A stretch of DNA of 64,000 nucleotides from an uncultured Bacilli bacterium. GTDB lineage: Bacteria > Bacillota_I > Bacilli_A > RF39 > UBA660. Both the position numbers and the translations under genes were made by a program. Below, piece by piece: positions 4,964-62,337 of the stretch. The notes beneath the pieces were generated by a model. It ran no database searches. It had not been told where the DNA came from and saw only the letters and a list, made by a program, of their open reading frames with translations. The DNA is taken from NCBI GenBank assembly GCA_947629375.1, contig CANRDN010000008.1, forward strand, positions 1,389 through 65,388, read 5' to 3'. Every line of letters starts with the position of its first letter. The stretch's first letter is position 1.

Positions 4964-4989
4964 ATGCAACAAAAAAGGAGGAATTAAAT

Positions 4990-23239: not shown

Positions 23240-24172
23240 ATGGAAAAGCTTTTTGGAATAGATATAAGTTATTATGAAAAAGGTATAGATTTATCTAAAG
23301 CAAAAAATGAGGGTATTAAGTTTATTATTTTGCGTGGTGGTGTTACTGGTTACGGAACTGGAACATCAAAAAGCAAAGATACTCAATTTGAGACTTTTTA
23401 TAAGCAGTGTAAAAACTTAAATATTCCAGTTGGGGCATATTGGTATAGTTGCGCTAACACTTATGAAAAAGGTAAAGCAGAAGCAGAATTTATGTACAAT
23501 AATTGCTTAAAAGGAAAACAGTTTGAATATCCAATATATATAGATGTAGAAGATACTCACTGGCAACAACCATCAGGAAAAACGGCTATAACAAATGCTA
23601 TTAAAGGTTTTTGTGAATATTTAGAAAGCAAAGGTTACTATGTTGGAATCTATGCTAATTCAAATTGGTTTAAGAACTATATTGACACAAAACAAACAAG
23701 TAAATATGATAATTGGATAGCAAATTGGGGTAAAACAAAACCAAGTACACCAGTTTGTGGCTTATGGCAATTCGGTGGTGAAACAAACAAATTAAGAAGT
23801 ACTAAAATAGCAGATTACACAGTTGACCAAGACTATGCTTATATTGATTATCCAAAAATAATGAAAGAAAAAGGGTTAAATGGTTTTAGTAAAATAGAAG
23901 TAAAAGAAGATAAAGAAGATACTAAACAAAGCACTGAAACAACAACTAACAATAATACTAACAACACTAATAGTTCTTTAAATGTAGGTGATAAAGTTAA
24001 AATAATTGGAACAGGTAATGGTGCAAGTGATGGATCTTCTAATACAGCTTATAGTATTGGTTGGACTAGAGAAATATTAAAAATTTATGCTGGAAGAAAA
24101 TTTCCATACCAAGTTGGAAACTCTACAGGTACAACAGGATTTTATAAAGCTAGTGCTTTACAAAAAATGTAA
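23240..24172 (+). CDS. endolysin: GH25 muramidase with C-terminal SH3-like wall-binding domain
   Basis: FGIDISYYEKGIDLSKAKNEGIKFIILRGG and YIDVED are GH25 signatures. A Thr/Asn linker leads to a ~70-aa C-terminal domain. Confidence 0.9.
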   Translation: MEKLFGIDISYYEKGIDLSKAKNEGIKFIILRGGVTGYGTGTSKSKDTQFETFYKQCKNLNIPVGAYWYSCANTYEKGKAEAEFMYNNCLKGKQFEYPIYIDVEDTHWQQPSGKTAITNAIKGFCEYLESKGYYVGIYANSNWFKNYIDTKQTSKYDNWIANWGKTKPSTPVCGLWQFGGETNKLRSTKIADYTVDQDYAYIDYPKIMKEKGLNGFSKIEVKEDKEDTKQSTETTTNNNTNNTNSSLNVGDKVKIIGTGNGASDGSSNTAYSIGWTREILKIYAGRKFPYQVGNSTGTTGFYKASALQKM

Positions 24173-45574: not shown

Positions 45575-46249
45575 ATGAAGTGTAAAAAATGTGGTAATGA
45601 AATAAATGAAAATAATAAATTTTGTGGCAATTGTGGTGCTGCTAATTTGAAAGATAATATAGATAACAAGGAAAATAAAAATCATATAGAAAAGCGAGAA
45701 AAAACTGATTTGCCAATGATAGTTGTATATGTCGTTGTTGGGTTTATTCTAGTTCTCTTGTTATTATATCGTTTTAATGGAATTTATAGTATTATCAATA
45801 TATTTAGAACGAGTCATTACGATGTTGGTAAATTTGAAATAGAATGTAATAAAAACTGTGATCACAAAAGTGGAAGCTATTATAATACTGGAGAAGTCTT
45901 TGAAGTATCAGATGGAAAAGCATCGTTGGAAACCCTTTCAACTGACTTTTTACGCTACTATAGTTTAAGTGATTATGTAGATAGAATAAAAGATAATTGT
46001 AATGATGGTTGTAATGTTATTGAAGATATAACAAAACTTGAAATAAATGATGTAACTTGGTATAAGTTAACTCTTAATGAAAATAAATATACCGATATGT
46101 ATTTGTTTACAGAAGATAATGGAAGAATCTACCGATTTGTTTATTCTGTTAAAGAAAAGTATTATGATATCAAACACCAAAAAGAAATTAAAAAAATGTA
46201 TAGCACAATAACTTATATAGATGGCAATGAGGAGGATTATGATGAATAA
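45575..46249 (+). CDS. zinc-ribbon domain membrane protein
   Basis: N-terminal MKCKKCGNEINENNKFCGNCGA zinc ribbon, one TM segment, and a Cys-containing ectodomain. Confidence 0.6.
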   Translation: MKCKKCGNEINENNKFCGNCGAANLKDNIDNKENKNHIEKREKTDLPMIVVYVVVGFILVLLLLYRFNGIYSIINIFRTSHYDVGKFEIECNKNCDHKSGSYYNTGEVFEVSDGKASLETLSTDFLRYYSLSDYVDRIKDNCNDGCNVIEDITKLEINDVTWYKLTLNENKYTDMYLFTEDNGRIYRFVYSVKEKYYDIKHQKEIKKMYSTITYIDGNEEDYDE

Positions 46250-46967
46250 AAAGAAAATGTTATTTTTTGTTATAATTATGCTTGCATTCGTTACTTCTTG
46301 TGAAAGCGTTGACCCAAATGATGTAGATAAGAACTATGTTAAAGATGCCTTCGAAGAATATTTAGATGAAAATTTTGAAGGAGTTGACTATAAGGTTACA
46401 GTTAATTCTTTAATCAAAGATGATGAAAGAAATTCAACTGGTACGGTTAAATTTAATGATAAATTTAAAACTGTTTGCAGTATTTATGGATATATTCAGG
46501 ATGAAATGTTCGATCAATCTGTAATAGGTTCTCATTATGAGGTTTATAGTGATTGTATGGAAGTAATAATAGAAAATGCCAATAAAAAAATAAATAAACT
46601 AGATTTTAAAATTAAGCTAGATACTGACTATGAAGTTCTTGCTAACGATATAAAGACATATATTAAGGCATTAAAAAAAGAAATAAAAGAATACAAGAAA
46701 AGTAAAGAATTTGAGGATTATTTTTCTGATGAATATGATTACTTTAGTGAAGATATAATTGAAGAAGAATATTCACATAATGAATCAATATATATTGATT
46801 CTTATAATGGTATGGTAATTTTAAATCGTTCTGGATCAAACTTTTCAATGCGTGGGGAAATAGAATTATCAGAATACTTGAAGTTACTTTACAATAATGA
46901 ATTAAAGGCAAAGGAAAAAGAGTTAGATTACAAACATAATGGACAAATCAAAGGAATTGATTATTAA
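46239..46967 (+). CDS. lipoprotein
   Basis: ATG 46239 follows a GGAGG RBS. The signal MMNKKKMLFFVIIMLAFVTSC ends in a lipobox Cys. Confidence 0.6.
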   Translation: MMNKKKMLFFVIIMLAFVTSCESVDPNDVDKNYVKDAFEEYLDENFEGVDYKVTVNSLIKDDERNSTGTVKFNDKFKTVCSIYGYIQDEMFDQSVIGSHYEVYSDCMEVIIENANKKINKLDFKIKLDTDYEVLANDIKTYIKALKKEIKEYKKSKEFEDYFSDEYDYFSEDIIEEEYSHNESIYIDSYNGMVILNRSGSNFSMRGEIELSEYLKLLYNNELKAKEKELDYKHNGQIKGIDY

Positions 46968-46980
46968 AACTCAAAAATAT

Positions 46981-47017
46981 AAATCTATTTTAGAAAAAAA
47001 CTTAAAATAGATTTTTT
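46981..47017 (+). terminator. rho-independent terminator
   Basis: 12-bp stem AAATCTATTTTA / TAAAATAGATTT followed by a T run. Confidence 0.65.
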
Positions 47018-47029
47018 CTTTTACTTTGC

Positions 47030-47075
47030 TTTTTAACAGCTTTATAAATGATTTTTTAACAGCTTTATAAATGAT
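47030..47075. repeat. perfect tandem direct repeat, 2 x 23 bp (TTTTTAACAGCTTTATAAATGAT)
   Basis: Read directly: 47030-47052 equals 47053-47075. Each unit contains the palindrome TTTATAAA. It lies 46 nt upstream of trkA. Confidence 0.85.
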
Positions 47076-47120
47076 TTACAATTTACATTTTTTTTAATAT
47101 AATATCATTTGGTGATAAAG

Positions 47121-48485
47121 ATGAAGATAATAGTAGCAGGCATAGGAAAACTCGGTGAGTATTTAGCTCGTGAATTATCATTAGATGGTAATGAAGTTAC
47201 GATAATAGATGATAAAGCTTTTACAAATAAGTCAATAGTAAATAATGAAGATGTTTTCTATGTCAATGGAAATGCACTTGACTCTAATGTTTTATTAGAA
47301 GCAGGTATTGAAAACTCTGATTTGTTAATTTCTGTTATGGATAAAGATGAAAAAAACATAATGTGTTCTTTTCTTGGTAAAAAATTAGGCGTTAACAAGA
47401 CTATTGCTCGTGTTAGAACACCAGAGTATTCTTCATCTTTAAATTTATTAAAAGAAGATTTAGGACTTTCTATGATTATTAATCCTGAATATATGACAGC
47501 AACTCATATAGCAAGATTATTAAGTATTCCTAATGCTTTGGATACTGTTTCTTTTTTTAAGGGAAGAATTTCTTTGGTGTCCATTAAAGTTAAAGAGAAT
47601 AGCCCTCTTGCTAAATTGACTCTTAATGGACTTTCTAAAAAACTTAAGAAAAAAGTAATAATATGTGCAATTGAAAGAAATGGTGAAACCATAATACCAA
47701 AAGGTAATTATCGTATTGAAGAAGGGGATAAAGTCCATTTTACAGGTACAAGAGATCAAATCTTCTCATTCCTACAGTTTGCAGATTTAGTTGGAAGCAA
47801 AAGTAAAAGGGTAATGATAAGTGGTGGATCTACTACTTGTATTTACTTATCTCAAATGTTAATAGAGATGGGGATGGAAGTAAAGATAATAGAAATAAAC
47901 AAAGATAGATGCGACTTTCTATGTGAAACCCTACCTAAAGCTTTAATAATAAATGGAGATGTATCAAATCAGGATTTGTTGTATGAAGAAGATATCGAAA
48001 ACTTTGATTCTTTTATATCTTTAAATAATATCGATGAAGAAAATATAATTCATTCGATGTTTGCTAAAACGGTAGGAGTTCCTAAAATAATTACTAAAGT
48101 TAATCATATAAATCTAGATGGTGTCTTAGAAAAAGCTGATATAGATGCAGTTGTAACACCACATAAAATTGCTGCAAATCAAATAGTTAGTTATGTAAGA
48201 GCAATGGAAAATAGTAGCAATAGTAATAGTAGCTGTGAATCTATTTACAAGTTCGCCGATGAATCTTTTCAAATGTTGGAATTTAATGTTAAAAAGGGCT
48301 TTAAAAAGTTAAATGTTAAACTTAAAGATATCGATATCGATGAAGATGTTTTAGTTACAGCTATTTTAAGAGGCAGGAATATTATCTTCCCTTCAGGAAA
48401 CGATGATATAAGAGAAAAAGATACAGTAATTATTGCTGCTCTTGAGAAAAAAGAATTAAAAGATATCAATGACATTTTGAGGTAG
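47121..48485 (+). CDS. trkA: potassium uptake protein TrkA (two RCK/NAD-binding units)
   Basis: MKIIVAGIGKLGEYLAREL Rossmann motif and a second VMISGGSTTCIYLSQML unit. Directly upstream of trkH. Confidence 0.85.
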   Translation: MKIIVAGIGKLGEYLARELSLDGNEVTIIDDKAFTNKSIVNNEDVFYVNGNALDSNVLLEAGIENSDLLISVMDKDEKNIMCSFLGKKLGVNKTIARVRTPEYSSSLNLLKEDLGLSMIINPEYMTATHIARLLSIPNALDTVSFFKGRISLVSIKVKENSPLAKLTLNGLSKKLKKKVIICAIERNGETIIPKGNYRIEEGDKVHFTGTRDQIFSFLQFADLVGSKSKRVMISGGSTTCIYLSQMLIEMGMEVKIIEINKDRCDFLCETLPKALIINGDVSNQDLLYEEDIENFDSFISLNNIDEENIIHSMFAKTVGVPKIITKVNHINLDGVLEKADIDAVVTPHKIAANQIVSYVRAMENSSNSNSSCESIYKFADESFQMLEFNVKKGFKKLNVKLKDIDIDEDVLVTAILRGRNIIFPSGNDDIREKDTVIIAALEKKELKDINDILR

Positions 48486-48488
48486 AAT

Positions 48489-49904
48489 ATGAGAAACAAA
48501 TTAATATATAAATATATTGGTAAAGTTTTAATTGGTTATTCTTTCTTATTAATTCTTCCATTTTTAGTTGGACTTTACTATAATGAATTGCCTCTTGTTT
48601 TTCTTTATACGGCTTTAGAAACCTTAGCGCTTGGATTTCTTTTAACGAGACTTAAAAGTGATAGAAAAAACTTATTTGCAAGAGATGGTTTTAAGATAGT
48701 TACAATATCTTGGGTAGTTATAAGTTTAATTGGTGCAATACCGCTTATGGTGGATGCCAATCTATCATTTGTCGATGCTTTTTTTGAAGCAGTTTCAGGA
48801 TTTACGACAACAGGTGCTACGATGTTTGATAATGTCGAAATATTACCGAAGAGTATTCTTTTTTGGCGAGACTTTATGCACTTTATTGGTGGAATGGGAG
48901 TTCTTGCTTTTGTAATGGCCATTGTTCCTCTTGCCAAAAGTGATAAATCGATGTATCTACTTAAAGCCGAGATGCCAGGACCTTCTGTATCAAAATTAGT
49001 TCCAAGTATTAAAAAGACCTTATATTATCTATATGGCATCTATTTTGCTCTTACTTTAATTGAGTTTATCTTACTTTTAATATCAGGAATGCCTGTGTTT
49101 GACAGCCTTTTAATATCTATGGGAACAGCGGGTACTGGTGGATTTAGTCCACTAAGTACAAGTGTAGCAACTTATAGTGTAATGGCCAAAATAGTCGTAT
49201 CAGTCTTTATGTTTTTATTTGGAGTTAACTTTAACATCTATTTCTTGATTTTAATTAAAGACTTCAAAAGTGCCTTTAAAAGTGAAGAATTAAAAGTATA
49301 TATCGGACTTTATCTTTTTACAGTATTTTTACTTGTTATGAATTCGATAAATATCTTTTCAAGTATTAATGAAGCTTTATTAAATGGCTTTTTCAATGCA
49401 AGCTCATTTATTTCGAGTACTGGTTACAGTATTGGAGATGTCAATATCTATCCGACTGCTTGTAGGCTTTGGATATTGTTTATGATGGTTGTATCTGCCT
49501 GTGCTGGAAGTACTTGTGGTGGCTTTAAAGTATCTCGTCTTATCTTAATTTTTAAAATAATAAAAAGGGATATTCAAAAGATTGTTCATCCAAATAGTGT
49601 GTCAATGATAACTTTTGAAGGTAAAAAAGTAGAAGAGGAAACTCTAGAGAGCACCAAAAGCTTTATGTTTTTATATATTCTACTTATACTCATCATCTTG
49701 TTTGTGGTGTCCCTTGATGGATTTTCTTTAGAGACTAGTATAAATGCTGTTTTCTCAACTTTTGGTAATGTTGGACTTTATTTTGATATTCCAAGTTTTT
49801 CAATGTTTAGTGACTTATCTAAAATATTTATGTCTATAGGTATGCTTTTAGGAAGACTTGAGATATATCCAATAATTGCACTTCTCGTATCAAGAAGAAA
49901 ATAA
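48489..49904 (+). CDS. trkH: potassium transporter TrkH/KtrB family membrane subunit
   Basis: 471 aa, polytopic, with selectivity-filter-like repeats GFTTTGATM, TAGTGGFS, SSTGYS and STFGNVGL. Confidence 0.85.
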   Translation: MRNKLIYKYIGKVLIGYSFLLILPFLVGLYYNELPLVFLYTALETLALGFLLTRLKSDRKNLFARDGFKIVTISWVVISLIGAIPLMVDANLSFVDAFFEAVSGFTTTGATMFDNVEILPKSILFWRDFMHFIGGMGVLAFVMAIVPLAKSDKSMYLLKAEMPGPSVSKLVPSIKKTLYYLYGIYFALTLIEFILLLISGMPVFDSLLISMGTAGTGGFSPLSTSVATYSVMAKIVVSVFMFLFGVNFNIYFLILIKDFKSAFKSEELKVYIGLYLFTVFLLVMNSINIFSSINEALLNGFFNASSFISSTGYSIGDVNIYPTACRLWILFMMVVSACAGSTCGGFKVSRLILIFKIIKRDIQKIVHPNSVSMITFEGKKVEEETLESTKSFMFLYILLILIILFVVSLDGFSLETSINAVFSTFGNVGLYFDIPSFSMFSDLSKIFMSIGMLLGRLEIYPIIALLVSRRK

Positions 49905-49925
49905 AATATAGAAAGGAATATGGTT

Positions 49926-50648
49926 ATGCAAGAAGAAAAACTTAATAATTTAATGAATAAATACTCTTTAAGTGATAATGAGAAAAAAGAGTTTTTAAAA
50001 ATTGTTAATCCAATTATCGAACATAAAGAATTTCAAAGAAGATTAACTAAAGAATTTCTTCATCATAGTGATATTACCTTAGGTGAGCACATCTTAGAAG
50101 ATGCTTTAATTACTTATAAACTTTCTAAAAAGGAGAAAAAGAAAAATATAAATATTAATCTTGCTGTTAAAATTGCTCTTTTTCACGACTTATACACAAT
50201 TCCTTGGCAAAATAATAAGGAAAATACTAAAGTTAAAAAGTTTTCTCATAAACACGGATTTAGACATCCAATAGAAGCTGCGATAAATGCTTCTTACTGG
50301 TATAAAGATGAATTTAAAAATGAAGAGGAAGCAAAAATATTAATCGATGGTATAATTCACCATATGTATCCACTTCCAGTAACAAGAACTAAAAGAATAG
50401 AAGAAGATGAACTTAAAAACTATGACTTATTTTTAAAACTTCCTAAAAACATCCAACAAATGATAAAGGATTCTGCAAATAGAACGAAAGTATTCAGTTA
50501 TTCTTTATGTAGAAGTAAATACCCTGAAGGTAGGATTATGTCTAAATCTGATAAAATGGTTTCTTTTCATCAAATAAAGAACTTAAATAGTCTTACTGCA
50601 CTTTTAACAGGTAAAAATAAAAGTATCGAAGATAAGGATAAAGAATGA
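49926..50648 (+). CDS. HD domain protein
   Basis: HHSDITLGEHILEDA......LFHDLYT supplies the H...HD metal-binding residues. ATG 49926 has better RBS spacing than 49920. Confidence 0.6.
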   Translation: MQEEKLNNLMNKYSLSDNEKKEFLKIVNPIIEHKEFQRRLTKEFLHHSDITLGEHILEDALITYKLSKKEKKKNININLAVKIALFHDLYTIPWQNNKENTKVKKFSHKHGFRHPIEAAINASYWYKDEFKNEEEAKILIDGIIHHMYPLPVTRTKRIEEDELKNYDLFLKLPKNIQQMIKDSANRTKVFSYSLCRSKYPEGRIMSKSDKMVSFHQIKNLNSLTALLTGKNKSIEDKDKE

Positions 50649-51343
50649 TTATGAAATCCGATTTATATAAGATAGATAATAGTGTCGAGAAAATATTAAA
50701 TAAAAAAAGTACTTTATTTTTAGATCAGAAAGAATTTAAAGAAGTAACAGCAAAATTAAGAAAAGGAAGTTATAAAGTTTATTATCCATACAAAGATAGT
50801 GAGAAAGTAATACTTTATTGTGATAAAATACCTGGTGTTACGCTTTTCGAAATTAAGTCATTTACTCCATTAAGACACCAAGACATTTTAGGTAGTCTAA
50901 TGGCTCTTAATATCTCTTCAAGTTATTTAGGAGATATCATAATCGATAAAGATAATTATTACTTTTATGTTCTAGACGAATTAAGTAGTTTTATAAGTGA
51001 TAATTTAAAAACTATTGGGTCCTCAAGCGTTTCTTTAACAAAGATTGATTTAGATTACTTAAAAGATTACGAAAGAAATTATGAAAAGAATGAAGTAATT
51101 GTCTCAAGTCTTCGAATCGATAATGTCTTATCAAAAGTCATAGGAACCAATAGAGATAAAATAATAGAAAAAATAAAAAATAAAGAAGTAATTTTAAATT
51201 ATGAAGTTTTAACTAAATCATCGATTAATCTAAAAGAAAATGATGTCTTTAGTGTTAGAAAATATGGTAAATATAAATTCGTTGGAGTAACTAATCATAC
51301 TAAAAAGGATAATTTAGTAATTGAATACTTAAAGTATATATAA
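50645..51343 (+). CDS. S4-domain RNA-binding protein (YlmH-like)
   Basis: The C-terminal segment LRIDNVLSKVIGTNRDKIIEKIKNKEVILNYEVL is an S4 motif. Size and layout match YlmH. Confidence 0.6.
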   Translation: MIMKSDLYKIDNSVEKILNKKSTLFLDQKEFKEVTAKLRKGSYKVYYPYKDSEKVILYCDKIPGVTLFEIKSFTPLRHQDILGSLMALNISSSYLGDIIIDKDNYYFYVLDELSSFISDNLKTIGSSSVSLTKIDLDYLKDYERNYEKNEVIVSSLRIDNVLSKVIGTNRDKIIEKIKNKEVILNYEVLTKSSINLKENDVFSVRKYGKYKFVGVTNHTKKDNLVIEYLKYI

Positions 51344-51369
51344 TTAAAAACTTTTCAAGAGGTAATAAT

Positions 51370-51867
51370 ATGATAAATATAGCAAAAAGAAAAGCATTAA
51401 TGATATCTTTAATACTTATCTCTTTATCTTTTCAAAAGGATAATGAGCTAAATAAACCTAATATTGAAATAATGGAGAACTCTAATTATTTTGGTAAATA
51501 TAGTAAAGGTAAAATATATATTGGAGATATTAATTTTTTAAAAACTTTAAATAATAAAGAAGATGGGGATGTCTTGGTTTTAGATGCTAGAGATTCTATA
51601 GAAGACCCTTGTCTCAAAATATTAGATTCTTCTTCGATAATCGACGAAAAAGATCGAGATGACATTATAAAAGTTTTATGTAGATATGAAGAACTTTTCC
51701 CAAGTGATTGGAAAAGAAGTTTTGATTCAATGAAAATTGAATGGTATGTCCATAATCTTTTATATTATTTGAATATTGAAAGAGATAGAACTAAAGATGT
51801 TGATTTAAACAATGCTGATGAAGAAATGTACAACAATAAAGTATTAAAAAAAGTACTAAAAGTATAG
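51370..51867 (+). CDS. hypothetical secreted/membrane-anchored protein
   Basis: 165 aa with an N-terminal hydrophobic segment ALMISLILISLSF. Confidence 0.5.
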   Translation: MINIAKRKALMISLILISLSFQKDNELNKPNIEIMENSNYFGKYSKGKIYIGDINFLKTLNNKEDGDVLVLDARDSIEDPCLKILDSSSIIDEKDRDDIIKVLCRYEELFPSDWKRSFDSMKIEWYVHNLLYYLNIERDRTKDVDLNNADEEMYNNKVLKKVLKV

Positions 51868-51876
51868 GAGGATATT

Positions 51877-52512
51877 ATGTTAGATAATGTTATAGTGTTT
51901 AGACAAAGTAGTATTAAAATTACAAGAGATAAAGTGTTGTATTTTGACCCATTTAAAATTGAAAAGGAGTATAAGGATGCTGATATAATTTTTATTACCC
52001 ACGATCATTTTGATCACTTCGATTTAGAAAGTATTAACAAAGTAAAAAAGGATACCACTAAAATAGTTGTGCCATATTCTTTAAAAGATAAAGTTTTAAA
52101 TAGTTTTAAAAGTGATAATGTTTTACTTGTTGAACCAGATAAAAGTTACACACTTGATAATATTAAATTTGATACAGTAAGAGCATATAACAATAATAAA
52201 AAATTCCATCCTAAAGAAAATAATTGGGTAGGGTACCTTCTTTATTTAGATAACTATAAATATTATGTAATGGGAGATACTGATGATACAGTAGATGCAA
52301 GGAGTGTTGCACCTGATATTTTATTTGTTCCAATTGGTGGAATGTACACGATGGATGTATCTGAAGCAATAAATTATACTAACTATGTAAAGCCTAAAAT
52401 AGCTGTACCAATCCATTATGGTGAAGTAGTAGGAAGTAAAGAAGATGGTGAAGAGTTTATTAACGGACTTGATGAAACAATAAAAGGAGTTATACTTATA
52501 AATAAAGGATAG
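51877..52512 (+). CDS. MBL-fold metallo-hydrolase
   Basis: ITHDHFDHF (HxHxDH) motif and a later VPIHYG. Confidence 0.75.
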
Positions 52513-52520
52513 GAAAATAT

Positions 52521-52769
52521 ATGAGAAAAATAGTAATAAAAGGAATATATAAGCATTTTAAGGGTGACTACTATCTTGTCGAAGACGTAGCAACTCATTC
52601 AGAGACAGATGAAAAATTAGTTATTTATCGAAGCTTATATGGAGATGGAGAACTTTACGCAAGACCTATCGATATGTTCTTAAGTGAAGTAGATCACGAA
52701 AAATATAAAGATGTAAAACAAAAATATCGCTTTGAATTACAAAAAATAGAAAGCAAGAATCATAAATAA
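52521..52769 (+). CDS. DUF1653 family protein
   Basis: [44 protein letters not shown] matches the DUF1653 pattern. Confidence 0.75.
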
Positions 52770-52803
52770 TTAGATTTTTGTCATATTAAATATAGGAGAG
52801 TTT

Positions 52804-54267
52804 ATGAATAAAGAAAAGTTACAAGAATATTTAAAAAGAATAGGAGAACTTAGATACTTAATCACAGTCCTTAGATGGGATATGGATACAGTAGCACCTA
52901 AAAAGAGTTACGACTATTTAATAAATGTCAGTACTAAGTATGAAATGGAAGCTTATGAACTTGAAACAAGTGAAGAATTATTGACTTTATTAATTAACTT
53001 AATAAATAGTGATGAATTTAATTCTTTATCTAAAGAAGAGCAAATTTATATAAATGATTTAAAAGAAGATTTCTATAAATTTAGACAAGTTCCTAAAGAC
53101 TTTTATGAAGACTATTGTAATCTTAGAAGCACTTCCTTAAATGTCTGGAAAGAAGCTAAAGATAATAATGATTATGAGACTTTTAAACCATATTTGACAA
53201 AGGTTATCGAGTATACTAAAAGATATTATCGTTTTATGTATCCTGATACTGACAACTTATATGATTGTATGATAGGGGAATATGAAAAAGGAATAAAGTC
53301 AGAATTTATTGATTCCTTATTTGATAAGTTAAAAGAAGAAATAATTCCAATTGTCAAAAATCTTAAAGAAAAGAATGTAAAAAAAGTTAAAAATGTTTTA
53401 GATGACAGTGAGTTTATCTCTTTTGCTAAGTTTCTTTTAGATTATATTGGTTTCGATAACGAAAGAGGCGCTCTTGGAATATATACTCACGGATATACAA
53501 CTAAGTTAAATAAAAATGATGTAAGAATTACTTTTTCCAATAATGACAATCCAATCGATTCAATAAGCACGATAGTTCACGAAGGTGGACACGGAATATT
53601 TGATCAAAATATTGGAAGTAATCTAACAGAGTATGAAACATACGATGTCAATAAATATGCTTTGCACGAATCCCAATCAAGATTCTTTGAAAATATCTTA
53701 GGAAGAAGAAAAAGTTTCTTTGTTCCTATCTACGATGAAATAAAGAAAAGACTAAATATCGATTTAACATTAGATGAATTTGTAGATAATTTTAATAACG
53801 CTAAGGCATCTTTAGTAAGAACTGAAGCAGATGAATTAACTTACTGCCTTCATATCATAATTAGGTACGAAATAGAAAGAGATATCTTCAATGAAAACAT
53901 TCCTCTTGATGATTTACCTACCATTTGGAATCAAAAATATCAAGAATATTTAGGTATCTCAAGTGATAATTACAAAGAAGGAATTTTGCAGGATATGCAC
54001 TGGTCAGATGGTTCTTTTGGATACTTTCCATCTTATCTTTTAGGGTCAATCTTCGATGGAATGCTTCTTAACTTAGTAAATGAAAAACTAGGGGATGTCG
54101 ATAAGATTCTAGAAGAGGGAAGAATAAAAGAAATAACGAAGTTCTTAAACGAATCAATTCATAAATATGGTGGTTCATATAACATAAATGAAGTATGTCA
54201 AAGAATTTGTGGTAAGGACTTAGATGTAGAACCTCTAGTACTTTACTTTAAAAGTAAATATCTATAA
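52804..54267 (+). CDS. M32 family metallocarboxypeptidase (Taq-like)
   Basis: Zinc motif VHEGGHG (HExxH), LHESQSRFFEN, DMHWS..FGYFPSYLLG. Confidence 0.9.
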   Translation: MNKEKLQEYLKRIGELRYLITVLRWDMDTVAPKKSYDYLINVSTKYEMEAYELETSEELLTLLINLINSDEFNSLSKEEQIYINDLKEDFYKFRQVPKDFYEDYCNLRSTSLNVWKEAKDNNDYETFKPYLTKVIEYTKRYYRFMYPDTDNLYDCMIGEYEKGIKSEFIDSLFDKLKEEIIPIVKNLKEKNVKKVKNVLDDSEFISFAKFLLDYIGFDNERGALGIYTHGYTTKLNKNDVRITFSNNDNPIDSISTIVHEGGHGIFDQNIGSNLTEYETYDVNKYALHESQSRFFENILGRRKSFFVPIYDEIKKRLNIDLTLDEFVDNFNNAKASLVRTEADELTYCLHIIIRYEIERDIFNENIPLDDLPTIWNQKYQEYLGISSDNYKEGILQDMHWSDGSFGYFPSYLLGSIFDGMLLNLVNEKLGDVDKILEEGRIKEITKFLNESIHKYGGSYNINEVCQRICGKDLDVEPLVLYFKSKYL

Positions 54268-54270
54268 TTT

Positions 54271-54295
54271 GGACTTTATTTAAAAGTCCTTTTTT
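54271..54295 (+). terminator. rho-independent terminator
   Basis: GGACTTT-ATTTA-AAAGTCC hairpin followed by a T6 run. Confidence 0.65.
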
Positions 54296-54322
54296 GATAA
54301 GATATTAATATAGGAGAAAGAT

Positions 54323-54676
54323 ATGAAAAAGATATTCGAGTTATTATTATGCTTTGTCTTTCTTTTTAGTTTAACAGGATGTCAAAGTGACTCTACAGAA
54401 GAAGAAAAGAAAGCAAAGGTAAAAGAGAAAAATTACTATGAAACAATGGAAGAAATTGTCTTAACTAATTCTCAACACTATTTTGTTACTAATAATAAAG
54501 AAGTAGTAAGTATGGATGAATTAGTTAACACTGGTTATATAAATAAAGAATTTCTAAAAGATTACGAAATTGATTCTTACTGTGATGGATATGTAGTAAA
54601 TAAGGAAGAAAAGAAAGTTTATATAAAATGTAAGAACTATGTTACTGATGGATTCGATTCTTCATTATTAAAATAA
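54323..54676 (+). CDS. lipoprotein
   Basis: Signal peptide with the lipobox LFSLTGC. Confidence 0.6.
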   Translation: MKKIFELLLCFVFLFSLTGCQSDSTEEEKKAKVKEKNYYETMEEIVLTNSQHYFVTNNKEVVSMDELVNTGYINKEFLKDYEIDSYCDGYVVNKEEKKVYIKCKNYVTDGFDSSLLK

Positions 54677-54688
54677 GTAGGTGAATAA

Positions 54689-55960
54689 ATGATTGTTTAT
54701 GCTTTAGCGTTATTTATATTTACTTATGTTTTGATGTTTTCTTTTTCAAAATATAAGTCTTATATTGCCCTTGGGTCAGCTCTTTTATTTGTTATACTTG
54801 GGTTCCTTCCAGTAGATAAGATAATTGCAAGTATCGATTTTAACGTTTTACTTATGATTTTTGGAACGATGGGTACAGTTAGCTTGTTTGTCGAATCAAG
54901 AATGCCTAATATGCTTGCCGATATAATTATTAAAAAAGCTACAAATATTAAGAACTTAACTATTACTTTAGCTTTGTTTTCAGCAATAATTTCGGCATTT
55001 ATCGACAATGTTGTAACGGTTCTTATGTTAGTACCAGTAACTCTTGAAGTTGCTAAAAAAATAGAAGTGTCCCCAGTACCAATTGTCTTTGCTATATCAA
55101 TATTTTCTAATTTGGAAGGTGCTGCTACACTAGTTGGAGACACTACATCTATCTTACTTGCTGGTGCTATGGATATGAACTTTATGGATTTCTTCTTTTA
55201 TCAAGGAAGAATTGGTTTATTCTTTATCGTACAGATTAGCTTAATAGCAGCAACTCTTGTATTGTATTACATAATAAGAAAGAAAAATAGAAAAATAGAA
55301 GATTGCAAAGTCCAAAGGGTTAAAGATTATGTTCCAACTATATTACTTGTTATGACAGTTCTAACTTTGATAGGAGCATCCTTTATTCCAAATACACCTG
55401 ATTTAATAAATGGTTATATCTGTGTCTTTTATTTCTTGCTTGGTCTATTTATTAAACTTATTAGAACTAAAAAAGTTAAAGCAGTTCTTAAGACATTTAG
55501 AGAGATTGATTTTGAAACTTTGTTACTTCTTGCCAGTTTATTTGTAATAATTGGAGGTATAAAGGAAACAGGTGCAATCGATAAGATAGGAGAGTTCTTT
55601 ACAACAATTGGTACTAATAATGCCTTTATTATGTACACTTTGATTGTAGTTATATCAGTTCTTGTATCAGCCTTCATCGATAATATTCCATATGTTGCTA
55701 CAATGTTATTTGTAATAGGTTCTATTTCGGAAGCCTCAGGAATTCCTGCAATTCTTCTATATTATGGCTTGATAGTGGGATCAACTCTTGGTGGAAATAT
55801 AACGCCGATTGGAGCAAGTGCCAATATAACCGCAATTGGACTATTGAAACGAAATGGTTACAGAGTGTCCAATAAAGAATACTTTAAATATAGTATTCCA
55901 ATTTCTATAATAGCCATCCTAGTAGGTTATGTTATGAATATATTCTTATTTTTGTTATAA
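54689..55960 (+). CDS. ArsB/NhaD (CitMHS/SLC13-like) family anion permease
   Basis: 423 aa with about 11 TM segments and the duplicated motif FIDNVVTVLMLVP / FIDNIPYVATML typical of this superfamily. Confidence 0.7.
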   Translation: MIVYALALFIFTYVLMFSFSKYKSYIALGSALLFVILGFLPVDKIIASIDFNVLLMIFGTMGTVSLFVESRMPNMLADIIIKKATNIKNLTITLALFSAIISAFIDNVVTVLMLVPVTLEVAKKIEVSPVPIVFAISIFSNLEGAATLVGDTTSILLAGAMDMNFMDFFFYQGRIGLFFIVQISLIAATLVLYYIIRKKNRKIEDCKVQRVKDYVPTILLVMTVLTLIGASFIPNTPDLINGYICVFYFLLGLFIKLIRTKKVKAVLKTFREIDFETLLLLASLFVIIGGIKETGAIDKIGEFFTTIGTNNAFIMYTLIVVISVLVSAFIDNIPYVATMLFVIGSISEASGIPAILLYYGLIVGSTLGGNITPIGASANITAIGLLKRNGYRVSNKEYFKYSIPISIIAILVGYVMNIFLFLL

Positions 55961-55961
55961 G

Positions 55962-55983
55962 GTGACTTAGGTCATCTTTTTAT
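55962..55983 (+). terminator. rho-independent terminator
   Basis: GGTGAC-TTAG-GTCATC hairpin followed by a T5 run. Confidence 0.55.
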
Positions 55984-56088
55984 TTGATGTAAACTTATAA
56001 AAAAAAGAATGTCAAAAATTGACAATCACATATGAGTAACCTTATAATTAAAATAAGAATAGTGTAGATGGTTATTGGAAGTGAAGAG

Positions 56089-59085
56089 ATGAATAATAAC
56101 AAGTTAAAAAAGAATAAAAAATTAACTTTAAAAATATTTATTATCGTAATTTTATTTGTTACTCTTGGAGGTCTATTAATTGAGACTAAGACAGGATTTT
56201 TTTCAACGGTTACTCGTAAGTTTTTAAATAGTTTAGGTATTTATACAGAAGGAGTAAAAGAAGTTGAGTTTGAATCAGATGATTTTAGTTCTGGTGCTGG
56301 TGGAAGTTACCATATAAAAAAGAGTGCCGATTGGACAGCATTATCAACTGCAACAATTCACTTTGATGTAGAAACAACAGTACAAAGCCATTACTTGCAT
56401 AGAGATGTTGTATTTGTTTTTGATACTTCATCAAGTATGCTTGGCTTAAGAATGGCAGAAGTAAGAGAAGAAGGCAACGAACTTGTTCCAAAAATCTTAG
56501 AAGACAAAGATAGTAGAATTGCTTTTATAACTTTTGATAAAGATGCTAAGTTAATAACGGATTTCACAAATGATGAAAGAATGCTTCTTGATGAGATCAA
56601 TAAACTTGAAGCCAATACAGTAGATGGAACAACAAACTACTATGATGGATTAAAGAAAGCAGAAGAAATATTAGAGGGTTATACACAAAAAGATGATACT
56701 GAATTAGTTGTACTTTTCTTAACAGATGGACTTCCAAATGTTAACACACCAAATCAAATTGCAGAGTATCAAAAATTAAAAATAAAATATCCATTTATGA
56801 GAGTATGTGGAATCCAGTACGAAATGGGTGAAACAATAATGTCTCAAATTAAAGAAATAAGTGATGAACAATTTGAAGCACATTTAAATGATTTACATAA
56901 TGCAATGTTTGATGCAGCTTTTTCACCAATGGCCTATGATACTTTTGAAATAACAGATTATATAGATAACGATTATTACACAGTAGAAGATGATACAAAG
57001 ATAAAAACAACAAAGGGTACAGCTACCTTACAAGTAGAAGGAGGAAAACAAAAAGTTGTATGGCATTTCAATAAAGGAGAACTTCACTCTGGAAATGAAG
57101 TTGAAATGGATATCGATGTTAAAATTAATAATAACTTAAAAGAAAAACCAGGATATTATCCAACTAATGAAAATGTTGAAGTAAAAAGTACTATAGATGG
57201 TAAGAACAACAATACAACTTTTTCAAATACACCAATATTACAACACGGCTATAAAGTAAAGTATGAAAGTAATATGCCAAGTGGATGTTCAAGTAGCTTT
57301 TCAAAAGAAGAAACACACTACGCTTTTGAATCAGTAAAAATTGAAGGAGAAAATTTAACTTGTAAAGATTATCTGTTTAAAGGATGGAAAGTAAAAGAAG
57401 CTGTACAAATGGTAAATGATGAAACCTTTGTAATGCCACAAAATGATGTTATAGTGCGTTCTTTATGGACAAACTTCGGATTACAGAAGAGTATGGAAGG
57501 AACGATAAATGAAAAATTAACATTGTATCGAGCAGTAGCAAAACAAGCTGTACCAGATAATGAAAAAAGTGAATTTACTGGATCATCTGGAATCAATTTC
57601 AATCAAAATTCTTCTGATACGAATGGTAAAGGCGTCTATACAATTGCTGATACATTAGGTGAAAGATATCCAATTCATTACTTTAGAGGAGAAGTTAATA
57701 ACAATAATGTAATCTTTGGAGGGTTCTGTTGGCAAATAGTAAGAACGACAGAAACAGGTGGAGTTAAATTAATTTATAATGGAACACCACTTAATAATCA
57801 GTGCCCTGAAGGAAGAACAAATGATGAAAGAATAATAAAAAAAGCAGCCTTCAATAAAAACTATAACTCACCAGCATATGTTGGATATAAGTATGGAACT
57901 GCTTATACATATAAAGAAAAAGTTATGGATATAACAGGTCTTACAACAGGACATTCAAAAACAATTACTGGTGGTATGACAGAAACAAATTATTGGTATT
58001 CAGATACAGTAACATACGACCCTGTAACTGGAATGTATACACTAGAGAATCCAACACAAAAATTTTGGTCAGATACATATAGAGAAAATCAGTTTAAATA
58101 TACTTGTCTAAGTGATATAGAGACAAGTTGCAGTCCAGTATATTATGTTATTGCAACTGCAAATAGTAGTATGTCAAAAACTGAATTAAAAAACGGAGAA
58201 ACAGCTGATGAAGTAGGTAGTGCCAAAATCATATATGGAAATGATGTAACATATGAAGATGGAACTTACAAACTTACGAATACTTTTGAAGGTCTTGTTG
58301 GTAGTGCTCAAACTGAATATCAAAAAATAGCAGGAGCAAATGGATATCATTATACTTGCTTTAGTGATAAAGATACTTGTAGTACAGTAAGTTATATATA
58401 TTATGCTGAAAGTATAACTAATAGTGGCATTCCTCAAATTAGTGCTTATTACATAGACCTGGAAAATGGCAAGAAAATAGATGAAGCACTAAAAGAGATG
58501 ACAACAGAAAGTGACAATTCAACACCATCTAACATAATGACTGAAATAGATAAGTGGTATGAAGAAAATTTGAAAGGCACTTATGGAAGTATGCTAGAAG
58601 ATACAATTTGGTGTAATGATAGAACAATAAGTGATTATGGTGGCTTGGACAAAGATGGTGATGGTGTATCTAAATCTTTGTACTTTTCACCTTATGCCAG
58701 AAGAAATTCACAGCCGTCACTTACTTGTAGTAATCCAAATGATAGATTTACTGTTAGTGGTGAGGTAGGAAATGGCAAATTAACTAACCCGGTTGGAACA
58801 ATAACGATGGATGAAGCACGATATGCTGGTGCATATAGTACAACGACAAACAAAACATATTACTTGTATACTAACGGGTCCTACTGGCTTGCGTCCCCTT
58901 ATAACTTCTACCACAGCGGCGCTAGCGAGTTCTTCGTGCATTCGAATGGCAGCTTGTACTACAACTACGTGTACACCTCTTCGTACGGCGTGCGTCCTGC
59001 CGTTTCACTTAAACCTGGCACATTGTACTCATCAGGGGATGGAACACCTGAACAACCATATATTGTTGATTTACAAGATTATTAA
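56089..59085 (+). CDS. N-terminally anchored surface protein: vWA domain + Listeria-Bacteroides repeat + C-terminal WLxSP...GVRP (lectin-like) module
   Basis: TM segment LKIFIIVILFVTLGGLLI. vWA MIDAS motif DVVFVFDTSSSM with LFLTDG. A YLFKGWKV repeat. A C-terminal YWLASP....YGVRPAVSL motif. The start could be 56068 or 56089 (purine-rich RBS). Confidence 0.8.
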   Translation: MNNNKLKKNKKLTLKIFIIVILFVTLGGLLIETKTGFFSTVTRKFLNSLGIYTEGVKEVEFESDDFSSGAGGSYHIKKSADWTALSTATIHFDVETTVQSHYLHRDVVFVFDTSSSMLGLRMAEVREEGNELVPKILEDKDSRIAFITFDKDAKLITDFTNDERMLLDEINKLEANTVDGTTNYYDGLKKAEEILEGYTQKDDTELVVLFLTDGLPNVNTPNQIAEYQKLKIKYPFMRVCGIQYEMGETIMSQIKEISDEQFEAHLNDLHNAMFDAAFSPMAYDTFEITDYIDNDYYTVEDDTKIKTTKGTATLQVEGGKQKVVWHFNKGELHSGNEVEMDIDVKINNNLKEKPGYYPTNENVEVKSTIDGKNNNTTFSNTPILQHGYKVKYESNMPSGCSSSFSKEETHYAFESVKIEGENLTCKDYLFKGWKVKEAVQMVNDETFVMPQNDVIVRSLWTNFGLQKSMEGTINEKLTLYRAVAKQAVPDNEKSEFTGSSGINFNQNSSDTNGKGVYTIADTLGERYPIHYFRGEVNNNNVIFGGFCWQIVRTTETGGVKLIYNGTPLNNQCPEGRTNDERIIKKAAFNKNYNSPAYVGYKYGTAYTYKEKVMDITGLTTGHSKTITGGMTETNYWYSDTVTYDPVTGMYTLENPTQKFWSDTYRENQFKYTCLSDIETSCSPVYYVIATANSSMSKTELKNGETADEVGSAKIIYGNDVTYEDGTYKLTNTFEGLVGSAQTEYQKIAGANGYHYTCFSDKDTCSTVSYIYYAESITNSGIPQISAYYIDLENGKKIDEALKEMTTESDNSTPSNIMTEIDKWYEENLKGTYGSMLEDTIWCNDRTISDYGGLDKDGDGVSKSLYFSPYARRNSQPSLTCSNPNDRFTVSGEVGNGKLTNPVGTITMDEARYAGAYSTTTNKTYYLYTNGSYWLASPYNFYHSGASEFFVHSNGSLYYNYVYTSSYGVRPAVSLKPGTLYSSGDGTPEQPYIVDLQDY
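58873..59006 (+). other. compositional island with DGR variable-region-like codon pattern inside the 3' end of the vWA gene
   Basis: Own count: 72 G+C in the 132 nt 58873-59004. Of the 44 codons, none ends in A, 24 end in C and 25 are adenine-free. All 23 adenines are at codon positions 1 or 2. A 21-nt A-free run spans 58986-59006. Confidence 0.5.
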
Positions 59086-59090
59086 AATTA

Positions 59091-59131
59091 AATAGTGAAG
59101 CTATGCCTTTATGGTGTAGCTTTCCACTATT
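59091..59131 (+). terminator. strong hairpin downstream of the vWA gene (no clear U-tract)
   Basis: AATAGTG/CACTATT (7 bp) plus AAGCTA/TAGCTT (6 bp) with a 2-nt bulge and a 13-nt loop, starting 6 nt after the stop codon. Confidence 0.4.
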
Positions 59132-59206
59132 ATTAATGGTAGATGAAAAAAGTAATATTTTTCTAGTATTACTTTTCTTGGTTATCATTACGAAAGGATG
59201 ATGTTA

Positions 59207-60988
59207 ATGAAAAAATGGACTATTATAATGCTATCGATTCTAGTATTAGGTTACATATTTTTTCGCCCAACAATTGCCGAAATATTAGAAGATGGAGTAG
59301 AAGTAAAAGAAAATACTGAATTAATTTATTATTTAGATGTTACTTATGACGGAGTGGATGTAAATGGAATAGAATCTACTGGTAGTAATCTACCAAATGT
59401 CTATAGTGATTATATCTATGTCGAAGATAAACTTCCTGAAGGACTAACATTTACTGGATTTAAAACTTCAGAAGATGGAAGTATTGGCGCAGTAAGTAAA
59501 AATGACCCTGATACACCGTGTCTTGGGTATGTCGTAGATGGAGTAGATGGATTAAAATACAATAATAGTACAAGAACTGTTTCATTTACTGTTAAAAATC
59601 TTCAAGCAGGATGTAAGTTAACTGTAGGAATTAAGACAACAACACCAAATATAAATGACCCAACAACTTCTGAAACGGAAGTAAGAAGGGACTTTTATAA
59701 TACGGCAACTGCAACAGAAGAGGATAAAACAGAAAACTCAAATACTGTACACGTATGGATGGGAAAAGAATCATTAAAAATGTATTCAGTAACATATAAG
59801 TATGCAGAAGGAAGTCCTGAAAATGCACCAGAACTTCCACCTATATCAAGTTATGGTGATGGTTCTATTGTAGGACTAGAAAAAGATCCGATACTCGAAG
59901 GATATAAGTTTAATGGATGGAAAACATCTGATGTTGCGGTAGTAGATGGTAAATTTACAATGCCAAAACAAAATGTAACATTCGAAGGGAGCTTTACAGC
60001 AATTCCAAAATATCGAGTAAGTTATAAAATAGATGGAGAATTTCCAAGTGGTTATGTTTTACCAAGTACTAAAGAATATTATGAAGGTTCAATGGTAACC
60101 CTAGATGTCTTAAAAGCAGGCGATGTACTAAACGATTATAGATTCCTAGGCTGGGAAACAAAAGATGGAGTTATATTAAATAGTGAAAAAGCTTTCTCTA
60201 TGCCAAATAAGAATGTAGAGTTTGTAGGTAAATTTGAAGAAATTTCTTACAAAGTTGAATATAAATTTCAAGGAAGCGTTATGCCACCTAGTGCTAGTTC
60301 ATTACTTCCTGCAGTTAAACAATATAAACCAGGTGAAAAAGTAAAACTTGAAAAAGATCCAGTAGCATCTGATTACAATTTCTTAGGGTGGTATTATGAT
60401 AAAGAATTTGTAATGCCTGAACAAGATATAACAATATATGGAGAATGGGAAAAACTGCCTGGTATCTTTAATTTATCAATTACTAAATCAATAATAGATG
60501 AGAAGCCTTCATATGAAAATGGCGACGAAGTTAGCTTTGAAATTGAAGTAAAAAATGAAAATGATTTTGCTGTATCAAATGTTGTTATACAAGAGCAAAA
60601 TGAAAAGGCATCATTGGTAGAAGATGTGGAAGATAGTACTTATACTTTAGATTCAGATCATATTGCAACAATACCAATATTAGAAGGAAATCAAATTGTT
60701 ACGATAAAAGCAGTATATAAAGTTGACGAAAATGACAAAGGAATAATAGATAGCACTGCAGAAATAATAGGTGCAGAAGTAGAAGGTAAAACTCTAAACC
60801 CTAATGGAAACTACAAGGCAACACAAATGTTTAAGGTAGATGTCAAGGAAAAGCCAAAAGATGATAATCCGAATACTTATGATGCAATTATGGAAAATAT
60901 CTTTGTATTAGTTATTTCAGTTTTAGGTCTTGCAGGAGTAGTATTCATATTCTTGTATGTTAATAAGAAAAATAAAAACAAAAAGTAG
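59207..60988 (+). CDS. cell-surface adhesin: pilin-like/DUF11-type Ig-fold domains + 4 Listeria-Bacteroides (FxGW) repeats + C-terminal hydrophobic anchor
   Basis: Signal peptide. Repeats YKFNGWKT, YRFLGWET, YNFLGWYY, each with a (F/V)xMP motif. C-terminus NPNTYD + IFVLVISVLGLAGVVFIFLYV + NKKNKNKK resembles a sortase sorting signal with a non-canonical motif. Confidence 0.75.
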   Translation: MKKWTIIMLSILVLGYIFFRPTIAEILEDGVEVKENTELIYYLDVTYDGVDVNGIESTGSNLPNVYSDYIYVEDKLPEGLTFTGFKTSEDGSIGAVSKNDPDTPCLGYVVDGVDGLKYNNSTRTVSFTVKNLQAGCKLTVGIKTTTPNINDPTTSETEVRRDFYNTATATEEDKTENSNTVHVWMGKESLKMYSVTYKYAEGSPENAPELPPISSYGDGSIVGLEKDPILEGYKFNGWKTSDVAVVDGKFTMPKQNVTFEGSFTAIPKYRVSYKIDGEFPSGYVLPSTKEYYEGSMVTLDVLKAGDVLNDYRFLGWETKDGVILNSEKAFSMPNKNVEFVGKFEEISYKVEYKFQGSVMPPSASSLLPAVKQYKPGEKVKLEKDPVASDYNFLGWYYDKEFVMPEQDITIYGEWEKLPGIFNLSITKSIIDEKPSYENGDEVSFEIEVKNENDFAVSNVVIQEQNEKASLVEDVEDSTYTLDSDHIATIPILEGNQIVTIKAVYKVDENDKGIIDSTAEIIGAEVEGKTLNPNGNYKATQMFKVDVKEKPKDDNPNTYDAIMENIFVLVISVLGLAGVVFIFLYVNKKNKNKK

Positions 60989-61012
60989 AAAGTATCGTTT
61001 TGATACTTTTTT
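60989..61012 (+). terminator. rho-independent terminator
   Basis: AAAGTATC-GTTTT-GATACTTT hairpin followed by a T run. Confidence 0.65.
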
Positions 61013-61065
61013 CTTTACTTTTAATATTACCATCTATATAATAAAAACTAATTTTAGGAGATATT

Positions 61066-62337
61066 ATGAACAAATTAAAAATTAATAAAAAAGCAATTTC
61101 TTTAATTCTTGCAGGTGCTATTGGTTTAGGTGGTATTTCTTTAAATAAAACAGTGGCAGAAGGAAATAAAACATATATTATGACGACTACTAAAGTTAAC
61201 TTAAGAACTGATAGTAATACAGATAGCAAGATTATAACAACCCTTAATAATGGGGATATTATTGAATCTGTTACTCTTCTTCCTAATGGCTGGTACGAAG
61301 TAATCTATAATGGACAGACTGCTTATATTTGTGGGGATTATGTAACACCTTTAGATAATAGTATAGAAAAAGGTTCTAATATAGTTATTGCAAATGATAA
61401 TGTGAGAGTTAGAAGTACTAATTCAACAGATGGAGAAATTTTAGGCCTTTTAGAAAAAGGAGATTCTTTGCAGTATGTAGGTACAACATCAAACGGTTGG
61501 TACGAAGTAAAATATAAAGGAAATACTGCCTATATATCAAGTGACTATGCTGATTTATCAAAAGAAGAGTTACAAGTAGAAAAGAAAAATATTATAATTG
61601 CAAATACAAGTGTCAATATAAGAGAATTACCCACAACTGACAGCAGGAAACTAGGTCTTTTAAACGAAGATAACTCTCTTGAGTTTATAAGAAAACTTGA
61701 TAATAATTGGTATGAAGTTTTATATGACGGAGGATACGCCTATATAAGTGGTGAATTTGTAAGAGAAAGTACTAAAGATGTCGTTGGAAACAAAGTATAT
61801 AAATTAGTGTCTATGAAAGAAGATAGTACGATTTATAAAGATAAGTATTTTACAGAACCACTTTGCGATATACCTAAATATGAACTTGCTAATGTCTTGT
61901 GTGGTGGTGATAGTTACTACCTAGTAACATCAGAAAATGGAAGTGGTTATATTAAAAGAGGAGTTACTGAAAACCTTGGCGATGTTGCAGTCGTTGTAGA
62001 TGTTAGCTCTCAACTTTTAACTTTGTATAAGGACGCTGAACCATTCCACACGGCATCAGTAGTTACCGGAAAAAACTCAATGCCAACAGATATTGGATTA
62101 TTCCAAATAAATAGAAAAATGAGAGATTATTATATGTCTTCCTACGATGTTTTTGTAAGTTTCTGGATGCCTTTTAGTGGTGATCAAGGATTGCACGATG
62201 CTTCTTGGAGAAAAGAGTTTGGTGGTAATATCTACAAAAAGAATGGAAGTCACGGATGTATCAACCTTCCATACGAAACAGCAGAAACAGTTTACAATAA
62301 TGTAAAGAAAGGAACAAAAGTTCTCGTTAAAAATTAA
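61066..62337 (+). CDS. L,D-transpeptidase (YkuD domain) with three SH3b domains
   Basis: Signal peptide. Three copies of NGWYEV.Y.G.TAYI...Y (SH3b). C-terminal GLHDASWR.....GSHGCINLP catalytic motif. Confidence 0.85.
   Translation: MNKLKINKKAISLILAGAIGLGGISLNKTVAEGNKTYIMTTTKVNLRTDSNTDSKIITTLNNGDIIESVTLLPNGWYEVIYNGQTAYICGDYVTPLDNSIEKGSNIVIANDNVRVRSTNSTDGEILGLLEKGDSLQYVGTTSNGWYEVKYKGNTAYISSDYADLSKEELQVEKKNIIIANTSVNIRELPTTDSRKLGLLNEDNSLEFIRKLDNNWYEVLYDGGYAYISGEFVRESTKDVVGNKVYKLVSMKEDSTIYKDKYFTEPLCDIPKYELANVLCGGDSYYLVTSENGSGYIKRGVTENLGDVAVVVDVSSQLLTLYKDAEPFHTASVVTGKNSMPTDIGLFQINRKMRDYYMSSYDVFVSFWMPFSGDQGLHDASWRKEFGGNIYKKNGSHGCINLPYETAETVYNNVKKGTKVLVKN

Follow-up and report, generated by a model that had tools for sequence, protein, structure and literature searches.

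A candidate variable region of a diversity-generating retroelement, without a nearby cassette, in a vWA surface protein of an uncultured Bacilli bacterium

In the prototype diversity-generating retroelement (DGR), that of the Bordetella phage BPP-1 (Mtd, Avd and the reverse transcriptase bRT), the transfer of sequence from a template repeat (TR) to a variable region (VR) is adenine-specific. Remote DGR targets, MutS-like accessory proteins and targets with DUF6273 domains have also been described (PMC5758913, PMC10743442, bioRxiv 10.1101/2024.11.15.621889). Roux et al. 2021 (PMC8144416) stated that surveys centred on the reverse transcriptase (RT) miss remote VRs; since such surveys begin at the RT and nearby repeats, VRs whose cassette is distant or lost are overlooked. 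The locus considered here lies in a 64,000-nucleotide stretch, called the window, from an uncultured Bacilli bacterium (lineage RF39, UBA660; contig CANRDN010000008.1, positions 1,389 to 65,388). Close to the 3′ end of a gene for a surface protein with a von Willebrand factor A (vWA) domain, an adenine-depleted, GC-rich island occupies about 130 nt (Table 1). To judge from its composition and its homologues, this island is very probably a VR written by a DGR.

In common with BPP-1, the VR is at the very C-terminal end of a ligand-binding protein, the template is AAC-rich, and VR and TR have a GC-rich 3′ end; the window's relatives also have an Avd-like accessory protein (PF22296) and adenine-specific TR-to-VR transfer. 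The window gene differs from the Mtd gene in that it encodes a cellular adhesin instead of a phage tail fibre, is without TR, Avd and RT in cis, and lacks a hairpin directly after the end that resembles an initiation-of-mutagenic-homing (IMH) site. The relatives differ from BPP-1 in having the target, TR, avd and RT in that order on one strand, with an RT of ~495 aa that carries a C-terminal MutS_I motif. In the TvpA-type DGRs of Treponema denticola (PMC5758913), one cassette serves several scattered paralogous targets, as also happens in the window's family, so that there is nothing anomalous in a VR that has no RT beside it. In Treponema, however, a TR is known for each remote VR, whereas the window's cognate TR was not found in the ~81 kb examined or in the collections searched. 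With respect to the phage DUF6273 targets (PMC10743442), the window differs in that its domain is the C-terminal part of a 1005-aa bacterial vWA surface protein, and in that its Pfam match is partial and below the gathering score. A further parallel is with the type V pilus adhesin DGRs of Bacteroides (bioRxiv 10.1101/2024.11.15.621889), by which gut commensals diversify the adhesive or tip component of a surface appendage, and which also have a MutS-like accessory (Msl there; here MutS_I, fused to the RT or, in the relative L051, a separate open reading frame (ORF)). The two differ in RT lineage and in target fold family; moreover, the context here is of the Gram-positive type, as in the relative L094, where the cassette sits in a cluster of vWA adhesin, SpaA-type pilin and sortase genes, and the window copy has no cassette.

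The island is in frame with the target gene. Over its 44 codons (58873-59004), 72 of the 132 nucleotides are G or C, as against 28.8% across the window. Its 23 adenines are distributed over codon positions 1, 2 and 3 as 8, 15 and 0; the third positions are C in 24 codons, G in 10 and T in 10, and 25 codons contain no A at all. In the remainder of the gene, 415 of 961 codons (43%) end in A, and at that rate the probability of finding none in 44 is 1.6e-11. These counts of G+C, adenines, C-ending codons and A-free codons reproduce those of a first-pass annotation made from the sequence alone, and the A-free run at the island's 3′ end reads as it was given there. When every 44-codon segment of the window's stop-free frames of 150 aa or longer was scanned (15,928 in all), those with two or fewer third-position A had their starts confined to 58849-58882; the most GC-rich 120-nt stretch of the window also falls in the island (66/120). 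The end of the island is 26 codons from the stop codon.

What such an island represents became apparent from its homologues. The C-terminal 215 aa of the target have 62 homologues with 37-53% identity, in which an alignment scaffold, YW..SP..F....A..F.V.S.G.L....V....GVRP.VSLKPG, encloses hypervariable positions; several are annotated with PF19789 (DUF6273). A scan of one genome per species gave at least 596 loci of the family, nearly all in metagenome-assembled genomes (MAGs) of gut Bacilli and often several per genome. Of these, 78 were fetched with their flanks, and at three of them (L051, L010 and L047) a direct repeat of the VR segment follows the gene at a distance of 130-270 nt. TR and VR differ at template adenines in 13 of 13 cases in L051, 17 of 18 in L010 and 17 of 22 in L047. 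After each repeat come a bAvd-like ORF (PF22296) and an RVT_1 RT, which in most cases ends in a MutS_I motif. Look-ups of three RTs yielded further cassettes, namely L087, with TR, VR, Avd and RT, and L094, with the same layout. The L087 system is found in three assemblies (L087, L088 and L089), which are identical over 2.8 kb save for a 3-nt start offset and 21 columns, all within the VR, while the TR is the same in all three; this DGR is active.

Most loci in the family are not of this complete kind: 75 of the 78 have no TR inside the fetched flanks, and many of these still show the codon signature. In the MAG CAZWXX, three VRs at separate sites, two in L037 and one in L029, are built on a common DNA skeleton, with differences only at positions 1 and 2 of NNC codons; hence, one TR serves several loci. 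Action in trans on several targets is, by this sequence evidence, usual in the family. A count of third-position A over 81 VR-like family segments gave 0 to 17 of 47 codons, with 10-17 in decayed segments; the scored TR-adjacent VRs (L010, L051 and L047) have 2 to 5, and the window VR has 0. One MAG has five VR-bearing paralogues (L037 6408-6614 and 7985-8191, L029 10418-10621, L038 and L069), of which three are on one template skeleton and two are visibly decayed with third-position changes, so that this one genome shows VRs at successive stages, from maintained to dying.

A codon-level alignment was made of the window VR and the VR/TR pairs of L010, L094 and L087. The VRs of these three loci, and those of L047 and L051, occupy the same alignment columns as the window island. 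At the 18 slots that are AAC or AAT in at least two of the three templates, the window codon is NNC or NNT in all 18; the scaffold codons from TCC CCT to CGT CCT are A-free in 16 of 17 cases, the exception being GAG. The first-pass annotation had interpreted the island as a DGR variable region with NNC codons descended from AAC, and both ideas gain from this alignment, in which this segment is the VR in homologues with complete DGRs and the NNC codons match the AAC slots of three related templates. It had also proposed that the A-free 3′ run is IMH-like, and the run does correspond to the GC-rich end common to the VR and TR of the relatives: GGCGTGCGTCCTGCC, at 58987-59001, is nearly the same DNA as the VR and TR ends of L010 and L094. 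The limit then given to the island needs adjustment. In L010, GGCGTGCGTCCGGCA is followed by GTTTCAC in the VR and by TTTTCCA in the TR, and in the relatives generally the VR continues past the shared 3′ end as GTTTCAC, versus TTTTCC in the TR; the part of the window VR that matches the TR thus probably ends at 59001 (GCC), with GTTTC (59002-59006) as VR-side flank. The 3′ end of the island may act as an IMH-like GC-rich boundary. The VR of L087 (2499-2627) and that of L088 are one codon longer than their own TR and than the L089 VR, and, compared with the three related TRs, the window VR also has one extra codon. These extra codons suggest either an occasional 3-nt slippage with retrohoming or templates of differing length.

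In L010 and L094, the order of genes is a vWA target (~1018 aa), TR-avd-RT (~2.2 kb) and a Flg_new/DUF11 protein. The window has the same two outer genes: its target is 39% identical to that of L010 over the full length and 35% identical to that of L094, and the neighbouring gene (59198-60988) encodes a protein 51% identical to that of L010 5421-7382 and 47% identical to that of L094 7555-9603. Between them, where the relatives have their cassette, the window has only a 112-nt gap with no similarity to cassette DNA and no cassette remnant. This cassette-less order is found in all eight contigs that carry the window's neighbour gene. Directly 5′ of the TR in L010 (3255-3300) and L094 (~5290-5340) there is a conserved element of ~35 nt with a small hairpin (ATGGATTAAACT...AGTTTAATTTAGGATTA), which may belong to the DGR RNA or its promoter; it was sought in the window and is absent.

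A cognate cassette was sought in ~81 kb, made up of the window, 10 kb upstream and 7 kb downstream. A blastn search with the VR against the window and its flanks returned only the self-match and no TR-like repeat; a scan of the window for RT and Avd motifs was negative; and hidden Markov models of the family RT and Avd matched only the positive controls, L010 and L094, and nothing in the ~81 kb. The earlier caveat that RT, Avd and TR are missing from the 64 kb therefore holds and extends to the larger region. Degenerate TR patterns gave no match in viral, genome and metagenome contig collections, although the pattern used for the genome collection began 21 nt upstream of the relatives' TR start and could miss a TR. 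The VR itself is absent from these collections too, so that the window organism seems not to be in them; the same genome collection has no orthologue above 52% identity. Two TRs were considered as cognates and rejected, one adjacent to P0147, with 8 non-A mismatches in 87 nt, and one adjacent to P0180, with 62% identity. A phage origin was also rejected, there being no match in the phage collection and no relative among the viral contigs.

Comparisons between strains show no variation in the VR. The exact target protein is found on eight contigs, and its cluster at 90% identity has a single member. Eight assemblies, from at least three strains, share one and the same VR sequence. Neither L001 nor L100 differs from the window; two other strains, L002 and L101, diverge from it by 1.3% and 0.7% over the compared stretch, with no change in the VR. 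In L101, 99 single-nucleotide polymorphisms (SNPs) occur in 14.4 kb, of which two, both synonymous, are in the target gene. The variation between strains that the first-pass annotation suggested looking for, confined to the A-containing codons, was not seen in these assemblies; the positive control for such variation is L087/L088/L089, with its 21 VR-only differences. The distribution of the SNPs is itself uneven. In L002 and L101, the flanks (46000-56000 and 61000-62000) mostly have 6-51 SNPs per kb block, with 53-54 kb SNP-free, whereas the adhesin gene and its neighbour (56000-61000) have 0-2. This dip in diversity suggests a recent recombination or sweep of the surface-protein locus, and near-zero SNPs across 56-61 kb imply that the sampled copies split very recently.

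A mechanism that would account for these observations is mutagenic retrohoming, that is, repeated replacement of the segment with cDNA copied from a template repeat in which the scaffold residues would be in A-free codons and the variable residues would be AAC or AAT. The expected outcome would be ~18 NNC or NNT codons, third positions free of A and a GC-rich 3′ end. The product would be a vWA surface adhesin whose C-terminal DUF6273-type domain presents the variable residues. The cassette, which two relatives carry directly after the orthologous gene, is absent from the window locus. We infer that retrohoming wrote the window copy and that rewriting has ceased. The VR had been called remote, orphan or a relic, which agrees with a VR lacking a cassette in ~81 kb; that it became detached from its cassette and is now static or orphaned is somewhat better than an even proposition, and a VR orphaned very recently seems to us slightly more likely than a quiet remote target. 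Several considerations weigh against such a detachment. L010, L094 and L087 group together to the exclusion of the window lineage, so that parsimony leaves a loss here and a gain in the ancestor of those three equal. The region examined is ~81 kb, and a cassette elsewhere in the genome would be compatible with everything found in it. The invariance of the VR is weak evidence, given that the whole 56-61 kb locus is nearly SNP-free. The absence of third-position A, and of any decay, is explained at least as readily by continued maintenance as by loss, since a VR at the cleanest extreme means either that the loss was very recent or that the VR is still maintained from elsewhere. Finally, remote targeting is common in the family, as the three CAZWXX VRs on one skeleton illustrate.

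One explanation, then, which is tentative but has to be taken seriously, is that the window VR remains a live target of a remote cassette. This TR-Avd-RT cassette, located elsewhere in the genome and probably beside a paralogous DUF6273 target, would rewrite it in trans, with an activity so low or conditional that a single VR is seen among the few strains sampled. In its favour are the many TR-less family loci that keep the signature, the sharing of one TR in CAZWXX, the position of the window VR at the clean extreme of the family, the documented cases of cellular DGR targets more than 100 kb away (PMC5758913), and the shortage of SNPs at 56-61 kb, which leaves little time since the copies diverged. 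The RT-, Avd- and TR-free ~81 kb speaks against it, as does the failure to find a cognate TR in the collections, from which the species itself is seemingly absent; the TRs of P0147 and P0180 are non-cognate, and P0080 and others come from samples unlike the window's. Moreover, the VR is unchanged in L101 despite the two synonymous SNPs in the gene, whereas the active relative has 21 VR changes and no flanking SNPs. In an unlikely variant, the window copy would be such a live target, and one advantageous version of it would have swept through the species recently by recombination, which would explain both the pristine VR and the SNP dip. An older loss, with the island kept ever since by purifying selection on the protein, would be in keeping with the existence of decayed VR-like segments and with the fact that DGRs are lost; it is nevertheless highly improbable because selection on the protein leaves synonymous third positions free to drift to A or T, as in the decayed paralogues, whereas the window island has G or C at 34 of 44 third positions and A at none in a 29% GC genome. 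An origin unrelated to DGRs, either as a recombined or horizontally acquired patch of higher GC content or through a local constraint of codon usage or mRNA structure, would be permitted by the composition taken alone and by the absence of TR and RT locally. However, the same GC-rich island, poor in third-position A, is in the same alignment columns of homologues with 40-50% identity from genomes of 27-33% GC, and the same island at the same site in distant homologues of AT-rich genomes excludes an imported high-GC patch, the case that had been named as refuting a DGR target. Horizontal transfer and codon bias were rejected, since the island recurs across the family and its boundaries are those of the TR/VR homology in the relatives; its A-containing codons occupy AAC slots, no near-identical DNA exists in the phage, viral, metagenome and genome collections, and an origin of this sort has a barely appreciable probability.

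The protein that carries the VR begins with a hydrophobic membrane anchor, followed by the vWA domain, which has the metal-ion-dependent adhesion site (MIDAS) motif DTSSS, a long middle part and the C-terminal DUF6273-like variable domain. PF19789 (DUF6273) matches residues 928-982 with E = 2.6e-4 and 21.3 bits, below the 23.5-bit cut-off, and the match spans just the last 46 positions of the Pfam model. A confident AlphaFold2 (AF2) model of the last 221 residues has a pLDDT of 88 and a pTM of 0.82. A Foldseek search with this model against PDB and BFVD gave no match with E <= 0.001; the best viral matches are DUF6273 proteins, with non-significant E values of at least 0.1, and a PDB profile search was empty. 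The predicted assignment of the target C-terminus to the C-type-lectin-like fold proposed earlier rests on the DUF6273 literature, in which DUF6273 is assigned to the C-type lectins (CLec) (PMC10743442). A hairpin, also noticed earlier, is indeed present 6 nt past the stop codon, and none of 200 shuffled sequences folds as well. It lies ~90 nt from the end of the VR and is more like a terminator than like a DGR target-recognition element. Hairpins follow the target stop in L010 and L094 too. The terminator scan did not call it because it has no T run.

Table 1. Features of the window (positions as numbered in the 64,000-nt stretch)
Feature	Position	Strand	Basis
Terminase (prophage late gene)	5836-7110
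Portal (prophage late gene)	7415-9022
Major head (prophage late gene)	11814-12644
Tape measure (prophage late gene)	15735-18788
Tail (prophage late gene)	19182-20726
Endolysin (prophage late gene)	23240-24172
Putative promoter-like site: TTGACA, 18-nt spacer, TATAAT	56019-56048	+	Consensus match only (12/12)
Probable DGR target gene, 1005-aa surface protein	56068-59085	+	ORF, Pfam, MIDAS, 39% full-length identity to L010 target
vWA domain, residues 113-267	56404-56868	+	PF00092, E = 9.5e-12; PF13519, E = 2.6e-12
C-terminal VR-carrying predicted ligand-binding domain, DUF6273-related	58420-59085	+	Homologues, alignments, AF2, weak PF19789
Probable VR: A-depleted, GC-rich island	58873-59001	+	Composition; register with L010, L094 and L087 VRs
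A-free, GC-rich 3′ end of VR, IMH-like	58986-59006	+	Terminal bases common to relatives' VR and TR
Intergenic gap of 112 nt, slot of relatives' TR-avd-RT	59086-59197		Synteny; no cassette remnant detected
Stable hairpin after stop, probably terminator or attenuator	59091-59131	+	-20 kcal/mol, z = -4.2
Flg_new/DUF11-CLIPPER repeat surface protein with C-terminal membrane anchor	59198-60988	+	Pfam; orthologue of gene after RT in L010 and L094

Elsewhere in the window, a prophage occupies 1-24200 and the 10 kb upstream (L102), where its early genes (YqaJ, SSB, NinB and PcfJ/K) are located; it has neither an RT nor a DGR. An IS605-family OrfB/TnpB gene is at L001 19210-20358, ~5 kb past the end of the window.

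The cassettes of the relatives have features of their own. The family RTs of ~495 aa end in MutS_I, a mismatch-binding motif (L010 3922-5415, L047 5487-6989 and L094 6001-7488), while in L051 MutS_I is a separate ORF (4836-5243) upstream of bAvd. The RT family comprises at least 1326 clusters at E <= 1e-20; only three RTs with a MutS_I-type fusion were known to Wu et al. 2018 (PMC5758913). In L094 (2176-13488), the cassette is inside a Gram-positive pilus-like cluster, in the order vWA target, TR-avd-RT, a Flg_new/CLIPPER/SpaA protein, a SpaA-domain protein and two sortases. No paper in the literature searched links DGRs with Gram-positive sortase/pilin operons as target loci, the one co-mention concerning conjugative megaplasmids.

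The window VR may be a node of a large DGR system that we have not found described in the papers searched, in which small-genome gut Bacilli carry an RT-MutS_I cassette in Gram-positive adhesin and pilus operons. The cassettes of this family appear to rewrite many paralogous DUF6273 domains in trans; much of this has been shown for the family, and the window copy may take part in it. As this case shows, composition by itself can point to a VR, and relatives with a cassette can then confirm it by homology. A modest evolutionary twist is that the cassette is absent from the syntenic slot between the target and the neighbour gene, and matched orthologous loci with and without TR-Avd-RT are useful for studying how cassettes are gained, lost and shared among paralogous adhesins. 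DGR diversification of vWA-type surface adhesins in these poorly known gut Bacilli would be a Gram-positive counterpart of the pilus-adhesin DGRs of Bacteroides.

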